Sequence record: PZ091942.1
Direction: 5' to 3' (one strand)
Length of the DNA: 64,000 nt
From: a phage
The stretch's first letter is position 1; the number at the start of each line of letters is the position of its first letter. Made by a program: the position numbers and the translations under genes. Positions 13,937 to 14,376 of this stretch are shown piece by piece. The notes under the pieces are model-generated. The model saw nothing but the letters and a program-made list of their open reading frames with translations. It searched no databases and was not told the origin of the DNA.

Positions 13937-13989
13937 ATGCCCGTAAAACAAGGGGGTAGTAAGTTCTGATAACGACAGCCCAGCTACTT

Positions 13990-14376
13990 TTGACATTGAC
14001 TATTTATTATGAGGCAGGGAATCAGCCAACCGCTTGCAAAGCATTAGTAGCGGATACCGTAATAAACAGAATGTCACAACGAAAACTGACTGCCGAGCAG
14101 GTTATAAAACAACGAAACCAGTTCGAGTGGATACCCGTCTTATTAAAGAAGGAGAAGCCTTTTAAACGTTATGTAAAGCTAATTCGTGATGATAATCCTC
14201 TGACGAAGAAGTCAATCAGAGAGAGCGAGCGGCTTGCAAGGCGTGCACTGAAGAAAGATTATGTGCCTTTATACAGTGGTACATACTTTCAGAGTAAGAG
14301 CGAAGGGGTGCCAAAGTGGTATACCAATCCTATGTATTGTGGTGATTTAGTGTTCAATAATAGTGCCCGTGACTGA
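13990..14376 (+). CDS. SleB/CwlJ-like cell wall hydrolase domain protein (start uncertain)
   Basis: Motifs YYEAGNQ...VINR...NQFEW...YF resemble Hydrolase_2 family; track start is TTG without SD; frame is open from 13963. Confidence 0.5.
   Translation: MTLTIYYEAGNQPTACKALVADTVINRMSQRKLTAEQVIKQRNQFEWIPVLLKKEKPFKRYVKLIRDDNPLTKKSIRESERLARRALKKDYVPLYSGTYFQSKSEGVPKWYTNPMYCGDLVFNNSARD

Follow-up and report, generated by a model that had tools for sequence, protein, structure and literature searches.

Initiation at CUG in Escherichia coli reaches about 0.1 to 3% of the AUG level (bioRxiv 10.1101/063800). The E. coli genes hda and yfjD start at CTG, and a TTG at codon 9 of yfjD was once wrongly annotated as its start (PMC3531124); the rep gene of FIB plasmids begins at a CTG behind a good ribosome-binding site (RBS), an arrangement argued to keep expression low, and annotations routinely misplace its start at the GTG of codon 14, further downstream (PMC11983097). 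Among phage enzymes, Hydrolase_2 is a recognized catalytic domain in lysins of phages of Gram-negative bacteria (PMC8223927), and in T5-like Salmonella phages a second lysin, with a SleB domain, has been described at a distance from the holin gene (PMC11180984). Phages 7-11 and GAP52, which encode SleB-type proteins, have been reported to lack the holin and lysozyme of the phiEco32 type (PMC4281155). Here, we describe a gene for a SleB/CwlJ-type cell wall hydrolase in a 64,000-nucleotide (nt) stretch of phage record PZ091942.1, referred to below as the window, and propose that its translation most likely starts at CTG 13966 on the + strand, eight codons ahead of the TTG at which most annotations of its subclade place it.

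The start region and its relatives

Positions 13200-15300 are matched by 99 phage records, nearly all of them E. coli podophages of the phiEco32 group (Gordonclarkvirinae: Kuravirus, Suseptimavirus). TH34, ECBP2, Bas88, and SU7 are the closest over this interval (92-96% identity), and the phiEco32 counterpart of the hydrolase gene is phi32_117. Start regions were compared in the 26 Kuravirus-clade sequences that could be read. Six sister lineages were drawn from public assemblies (L084/85, L086/87, L088-90, L177/78, L179, and L180/81), and their hydrolase proteins are 47-72% identical to that of the window.

A mechanically listed open reading frame (ORF) of 128 amino acids (aa) begins at TTG 13990 (13990 to 13992, + strand), a codon that is probably Leu9 of a longer protein. 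Pairing with the 3' end of 16S rRNA is +0.4 kcal/mol at this TTG and -3.3 kcal/mol at an internal ATG at 14072, essentially no Shine-Dalgarno (SD) sequence at either. Two in-frame stop codons, TAG 13957-13959 and TAA 13960-13962 (together 13957 to 13962, + strand), close the frame upstream, and it is open from GTT 13963, directly behind the TAA. An SD sequence, AAGGGGGT (13950 to 13957, + strand), which contains AGGGGG at 13951-13956, forms a duplex of -11.8 kcal/mol with the 16S rRNA 3' end and is followed by GTT-CTG-ATA. No ATG, GTG, or TTG stands in frame between these stops and TTG 13990, and the 18 nt that follow the SD contain no canonical start, whatever the frame; GTT, CTG, and ATA are the only codons between TAA 13960 and ACG 13972, as they are in all 26 relatives. 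The residues upstream of and into the listed ORF read V-L-I-T-T-A-Q-L-L-L-T-L-T-I-Y-Y-E-A-G. These readings agree with those of an earlier sequence-only reading of this DNA, which had described an ORF starting at a TTG with no SD, a frame open from 13963, AGGGGG ahead of GTT-CTG-ATA, and no canonical start codon. It left the start codon open among GTT, CTG, and ATA; the comparative evidence singles out CTG 13966 (13966 to 13968, + strand), a near-cognate codon 9 nt past the GGGGG core, as the most likely candidate.

Starts in orthologs fall at the same point. All six sister lineages begin at the codon homologous to CTG 13966, which is TTG in L084, L086, L177, and L179 and ATG in L088 and L180, each behind AGGAGGT. 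A profile search of 1.84 billion representative proteins returned 245 relatives, many of them single-domain proteins of 120-150 aa whose Met1 aligns to profile position 1 and to CTG 13966; the consensus N terminus of the distant relatives, M-[IL]-x-x-A-x-L-x-L-A-L-T-x-Y-H-E-A, fits (M)ITTAQLLLTLTIYYEA. At the level of sequence alignment, homology of this position with the ortholog starts is established. Homology to the N termini of orthologs and of distant single-domain members extends over the eight residues upstream of TTG 13990, which complete a helix, residues 4-17, that carries Glu16; this bears out the earlier suggestion that they may extend the domain.

Within the clade, AGG[A/G]GGT + 9 nt + CTG ATA AC is kept in 26 of 26 sequences, and homology ends immediately 5' of the SD, beyond which the sequences fall into five unrelated contexts. 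The invariant CTG would be accounted for by one T-to-C transition from the sister-lineage TTG. Codons 2-7 contain four variable sites, all of them synonymous third positions (P = 0.005 for four sites among 18 all being third positions), and codon 8 is Leu (CTT) in 8 sequences, the window included, and Met (ATG) in 18. Thus far, the locus has what a near-cognate CTG start calls for: no canonical codon precedes the conserved N terminus, orthologs have canonical starts at the homologous codon, and a strong SD, conserved together with the CTG, stands at a workable spacing, at the long end for this phage. Taken together, the six sister starts, the Met1 of distant relatives, the SD and CTG shared by 26 of 26 sequences, the synonymous changes, and helix 4-17 make CTG 13966 the most likely start.

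In the four sister lineages with TTG, this codon lies only 4 nt past the GGAGG core (AGGAGGT-cgt/ctt/cta/ctt-TTG). The weak codon and short spacing suggest, as far as sequence can tell, that the gene family is generally kept at low translation.

The canonical alternative is a start at TTG 13990, or at the ATG one codon upstream in the phiEco32 subclade, yielding a protein of 128 or 129 aa; the stretch before it would then be a 5' leader and its SD a standby ribosome-loading site. These codons are canonical and are annotated in most GenBank records, the ATG is present at codon 8 in 18 of the 26 relatives, and the Pfam match described below does not start until residue 21 of the long form, which means that the profile itself needs no extension. 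However, TTG 13990 has no SD of its own (+0.4 kcal/mol), the strong SD being 33 nt upstream, and the codon-8 ATG of relatives likewise lacks one; in the carefully annotated genome of phage Paul, neighboring genes have RBS features and the codon-8 ATG of the hydrolase has none. The synonymous-only change in codons 2-7 and the starts of sister lineages and distant members eight codons earlier likewise speak against it, as does the AlphaFold model, in which a start at TTG 13990 would remove residues 1-8 and with them half of the Glu16-bearing helix. We regard this alternative as unlikely.

The other near-cognate codon in the open stretch, ATA 13969, would give a 135-aa protein. AUA in E. coli initiates at levels like those of CUG (bioRxiv 10.1101/063800), and this codon too is invariant in 26 of 26 sequences. 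It lies 12 nt past the SD core, however, further beyond the 3- to 7-nt range of this phage, and the canonical starts of orthologs and the Met1 of distant homologs align with CTG, not with ATA. A start at ATA is distinctly improbable.

Three further accounts of the start region were considered and rejected. An upstream mini-ORF runs from ATG 13937 to TGA 13967-13969 and overlaps the CTG as CTGA, a layout that could accommodate termination-reinitiation or frameshifting. Its presence is not conserved, the ATG being missing in 4E8, L094, phiEco32, and others; a 1-nt length difference shifts the frame in SU7 and phiEco32-type sequences, and there is no slippery heptamer. Read-through of TAG/TAA from upstream was dismissed, as no start or conserved frame lies further up. 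RNA structure that masks or exposes the start was dismissed as well: the fold of 13905-14020 has z = -0.34, and only the terminator hairpin in it is stable.

Family, fold, and putative catalytic residue

The coding sequence (CDS) from CTG 13966 through the TGA stop (13966 to 14376, + strand) is supported by domain, fold, and the ratio of nonsynonymous to synonymous substitution rates (dN/dS). Its product is a 136-residue single-domain protein of the SleB/CwlJ type. A 137-residue translation matches Pfam Hydrolase_2 (PF07486) at 31.5 bits, above the 27-bit gathering cutoff (E=2.8e-7), over 14023 to 14328 (+ strand; profile positions 2-85 of 100). It also matches phrog_12974, a family of unknown function, and, more weakly, the endolysin family phrog_938 (E=2.9e-7). 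An AlphaFold model based on 11 homologs has a predicted local distance difference test (pLDDT) score of 85.4 and a predicted template modeling (pTM) score of 0.82, and the top three Foldseek matches to it, 4fet and 4f55 first, are SleB catalytic domains with probability 1.0. By model comparison the protein has the SleB catalytic-domain fold, and profile and fold together give it the muralytic catalytic domain of a phage endolysin. The SleB/CwlJ-like assignment made from sequence alone has therefore held up in both profile search and fold comparison. Sequence searches of PDB chains, with the single sequence or a profile, found no significant match, SleB being reached by structure comparison only; NCBIfam held no significant family for the window protein, and for the 7-11 homolog it gave a subthreshold spore_SleB match.

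Glu16 (GAG, 14011 to 14013, + strand), part of the motif YYEAGNQP, does not vary in alignment A2 or in any of the 20 distant homologs inspected. In the AlphaFold model it sits at the C-terminal end of helix 4-17, and the Pfam profile begins after it. Literature cited in PMC12331253 and PMC11148199 describes the catalytic glutamate as essential in SleB. From its invariance and its position in the helix, we infer that Glu16 is the equivalent catalytic glutamate, and the enzyme is probably a lytic transglycosylase, an assignment we treat as putative.

The protein is ~15.9 kDa with an isoelectric point of 9.8 and no signal peptide. Its mean Kyte-Doolittle hydropathy is 1.27 over the first 15 residues and 0.71 over the first 19. 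Signal-anchor-release (SAR) endolysins have a weakly hydrophobic N-terminal transmembrane segment of ~16-22 residues, usually after basic residues. We considered and rejected this class for the window protein: Glu16 is preceded by just 14 residues, the N terminus lacks a basic region, 19-residue hydropathy is 0.71, and the helix is modeled within the globular core.

Purifying selection and gene integrity

Pairwise dN/dS across the clade is 0.055-0.14 at dS of 0.45-1.0; the gene is under strong purifying selection and is alive. Among the 15 clade sequences readable from end to end, 14 have an intact ORF. Frameshifted or truncated copies occur in a metagenome contig (L098, 3001-3406) and in a 113-aa database protein (P0016).

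These copies raise the alternative of decay, in which the gene would be a remnant of an ancestral endolysin made redundant by gain of a holin and GH24 lysozyme cassette, with loss of the canonical start as the first step of pseudogenization. Phages 7-11 and GAP52, with a SleB-type putative endolysin and without the phiEco32-type holin and lysozyme, could illustrate such an ancestral state; compared with the sister lineages, the start codon has degenerated, and the gene lies behind terminators. Set against this are the dN/dS of 0.055-0.14 at dS up to ~1.0, the intact ORF in 14 of 15 sequences, and the invariant SD and CTG in 26. The 7-11 and GAP52 genes, moreover, are 30-34% identical and stand in another neighborhood, and are not clear orthologs. 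Finally, a weak TTG is already present in four of the six sister lineages, a pattern suggesting that low dosage has long been under selection and that the gene is not decaying. We consider decay very improbable.

Transcription signals and genome context

Four + strand terminator-like hairpins lie between the preceding 147-aa gene and the SD. Hairpin 1 (13702 to 13720) has a 7-bp stem with 5 GC pairs and then a T-rich tail; hairpin 2 (13730 to 13750; GCCGCCTTTGTGCGGC + TTTTT), conserved among relatives, is listed as a terminator in the SU7 and 4E8 records; hairpin 3 (13832 to 13853; GGCC..GGCC + GCTTTTTT) was found in a hairpin scan. Hairpin 4 (13911 to 13936; GCCCCGTCTTCGGATGGGGC + TTTTTT), with an 8-bp stem that includes 6 GC pairs, ends ~14 nt before the SD. 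It is the sole element retained in the centroid fold, is homologous to terminators of the sister lineages, and is annotated as a terminator in phage Paul. A narrower delimitation places hairpins 2, 3, and 4 at 13730-13745, 13832-13847, and 13911-13930. Positions 13100-14700 contain 6 terminator-like sites, against 1.3 expected from shuffles. In the two sister lineages tested, L084 and L086, a 147-aa upstream gene that is 67-69% identical is also followed by a terminator-rich spacer. No sigma70 consensus promoter was found between the hairpins and the gene, no gp36-type TAATGTATA motif (late promoter) was found near the gene, and an Rfam search of 13600-14650 returned nothing near the gathering score.

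The terminator cluster also contains a conserved noncoding element (13775-13822), consisting of the hairpin AAAGGGA-ac-TCCCTTT followed by the hairpin TGAATCAT-TGGC-ATGGTTCA. It is present in the subclade of the window and in L084 (~5490-5530), L086 (~5590-5630), and L179 (~1070-1110), and is missing in 4E8 and KBNP1711; it matches no Rfam family. Pairing in its second stem is kept by two-sided changes (TGAAACAT/ATGTTTCA in L086; GAAACGT/ACGTTTC in L084 and L179). The element may act as a small RNA, in antitermination, or as an operator, and the short ORFs that the Bas86 and Bas88 annotations place over it are probably not real genes.

Between hairpin 4 and the hydrolase SD, the short interval 13937-13949 is an insertion hot spot. 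In phiEco32 (L006 614-1411, phi32_119), EcP-vB, and Bas90, it holds a gene for a 265-aa signal-peptide protein with collagen-like repeats and a YadA-like C terminus; in L088 (5778-6056) it holds a 92-aa lipoprotein-like ORF, and in other genomes it holds unrelated sequence. Just downstream of the hydrolase, a 101-aa ORF (14578-14883, + strand) encodes a hydrophobic N-terminal helix and then coiled-coil-like sequence; the label "DNA helicase" that it bears in many GenBank records is implausible given the size and composition of the protein.

The sequence-only reading had noted that the gene sits among early genes rather than with lysis genes, and annotated relatives agree. The flanking genes are small early ORFs, and a study of SU10 places the genome arm that bears the hydrolase among early genes (PMC4281155). 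On the basis of these relatives, that study, and genome position, the gene is in the early, sigma70-transcribed arm. Near-perfect sigma70 consensus promoters occur at 9806-9833 and 10543-10571 (12/12 and 11/12 matches), and a strong terminator with a 12-bp stem occurs at 12413-12440, upstream of the small-gene block that precedes the hydrolase; these promoters and this terminator outline the first early transcription units.

In relatives, adjacent late genes encode a holin and a GH24-like endolysin, and a virion transglycosylase and an Rz-like spanin are encoded as well. In Bas88, the holin and endolysin (Bas88_0010 and Bas88_0011) lie ~23 kb (circular) from the hydrolase gene (Bas88_0108) in the early arm. 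Judged by position in relatives and the absence of a late motif, the hydrolase gene is not beside a holin or spanin gene and is probably not expressed late, as a conventional endolysin gene would be. The holin, GH24 endolysin, and major capsid genes of relatives were not found in the 64-kb window, and the conventional lysis pair, since it is not within the window, belongs to a genome segment outside it. Portal, DNA polymerase, Rz-like spanin, sigma factor, and virion transglycosylase genes were located in the window; their coordinates, as listed, are 1138-3381 (-), 43591-45435 (+), 49288-49635 (+), 50026-50676 (+), and 61347-62141 (-).

Proposed role of the hydrolase

The account we favor, and think probable, is that the gene encodes a signal-less 136-aa SleB-type muralytic enzyme that is CUG initiated and serves as a dose-limited accessory lysin. 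The strong SD (AAGGGGGU) 9 nt upstream would draw the ribosome to CUG 13966, leaving TTG 13990 as an internal leucine codon. A strong SD with a poor start codon, together with dependence on terminator read-through and no promoter of its own, would give very low synthesis from early infection onward. Having no export signal, the protein would remain cytoplasmic and gain access to the wall only once the late holin had opened the membrane, and would hence be an accessory lysin. This second wall-cleaving enzyme would act beside the holin-adjacent GH24-type endolysin that relatives encode. In this account, we infer CUG use, low dosage, enzymatic activity, and the accessory-lysin role, and the N terminus is placed by comparison.

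Several observations weigh against this account. The gap of 9 nt past the GGGGG core exceeds the 3-7 nt seen in the 12 window genes with a strong SD and a canonical start, and the possible initiation at ATA discussed above is a further count. The in-frame ATG at codon 8 of 18 of the 26 relatives may yield a shorter product in those phages. Diversity in the clade is low, so the synonymous-site argument draws on four sites only, and the hydrolase product is not listed in the SU10 proteome. The protein has no export signal (19-residue hydropathy of 0.71, no basic N terminus), its motif is EAGNQP instead of the commoner EARGEP, and its activity is putative. The phage group already has an endolysin, which leaves a second enzyme without an evident need. 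Finally, the L098 and P0016 copies may reflect occasional gene loss or assembly errors.

The presence of another endolysin in the group, together with an early genome position apart from the lysis genes, also fits an early role that is not lytic or not purely lytic and would be compatible with the CTG start. The protein might act in cytoplasmic regulation, for which T7 lysozyme (gp3.5), which regulates by binding T7 RNA polymerase, offers a model, or its hydrophobic N-terminal helix might give it access to the wall without a holin. This helix, ITTAQLLLTLTIYY, is unusually hydrophobic (1.27 over the first 15 residues) and carries the putative catalytic Glu. However, it lacks positive charge at the N terminus, offers just 14 hydrophobic or weakly polar residues ahead of Glu16, and with a 19-residue hydropathy of 0.71 falls well short of a transmembrane segment; AlphaFold packs it into the SleB-like core with a pLDDT of ~87. 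The invariant Glu and the family motifs point to retained enzymatic function, and no result indicates a binding partner. An early role of this kind is rather unlikely.

A bolder proposal, which we hold to be improbable, would treat the SD, the CUG, and the terminator cluster as a selected dosage governor that supplies a trace of wall-cleaving enzyme from the first minutes of infection. The enzyme would then not be a spare endolysin; it might act independently of the holin through its helix or have a nonlytic early role, such as wall remodeling for superinfection control or T7-lysozyme-like regulation.

Annotation and comparison with known systems

Several GenBank records already label the gene "cell wall hydrolase," and the BASEL records Bas86, Bas88, and Bas89 annotate a 411-nt CDS from the CTG. 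Most other records start the gene at the TTG (128 aa), at the codon-8 ATG (129 aa), or at an internal codon, e.g., ATG 14072 (101 aa in SU7; 110 aa in O18-011). If CTG 13966 is the true start, ~100 deposited Kuravirus and Suseptimavirus genomes annotate the gene 7, 8, or 35 residues short, and cloning the annotated ORF as a candidate lysin would remove half of the helix bearing the putative catalytic Glu. A phage example would also be added to the very few genes in E. coli systems with a verified CTG start and would illustrate how a strong SD with a poor start codon can hold a potentially toxic enzyme at a low dose. The relevance for phage lysis work and for the engineering of phage-derived lysins is modest; the main value lies in the annotation correction and in a testable dosage limitation.

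The hydrolase gene adds one more case to two established groups, the CTG-initiated genes and the SleB-type phage hydrolases, and is no new type of system. With hda, yfjD, and FIB rep it shares a CTG behind a good RBS, a conserved N-terminal extension, a downstream canonical codon misannotated as the start, and a proposed low dosage. It differs from them in being a phage gene for a potentially toxic wall hydrolase, and their starts were verified by mutagenesis or N-terminal sequencing, whereas the hydrolase CTG was arrived at by comparison.

Relative to the SleB/CwlJ spore-cortex enzymes (PF07486; PDB 4fet and 4f55), the window protein is phage borne, belongs to a phage of a Gram-negative host, and is ~14-18% identical. 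It has no N-terminal peptidoglycan-binding domain or signal peptide, carries EAGNQP rather than EARGEP, and has a far more hydrophobic first helix; its muralytic activity is putative.

Homologs in the related C3-morphotype phages 7-11 and GAP52 are 30-34% identical and annotated as putative endolysins. The SleB-type proteins of these phages (and of phiEcoM-GJ1) resemble that of the window in size (141 aa), single-domain organization, and position of the N terminus (MSFLVCWLALTLNIYTEAGGEG), and the 7-11 and GAP52 genes likewise lie in the leftward early/middle arm. In contrast to the window gene, they start at ATG, stand in another neighborhood, and encode the presumed sole endolysin, whereas relatives of the window have a separate holin/GH24 pair.

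A parallel in layout is found in T5-like Salmonella phages, which share a SleB-domain hydrolase far from the holin and a conventional endolysin beside it (PMC11180984). These precedents, together with the "cell wall hydrolase" labels, make the location of the window gene less surprising. The T5-like SleB lysins belong to other phage families and have no reported start-codon anomaly.

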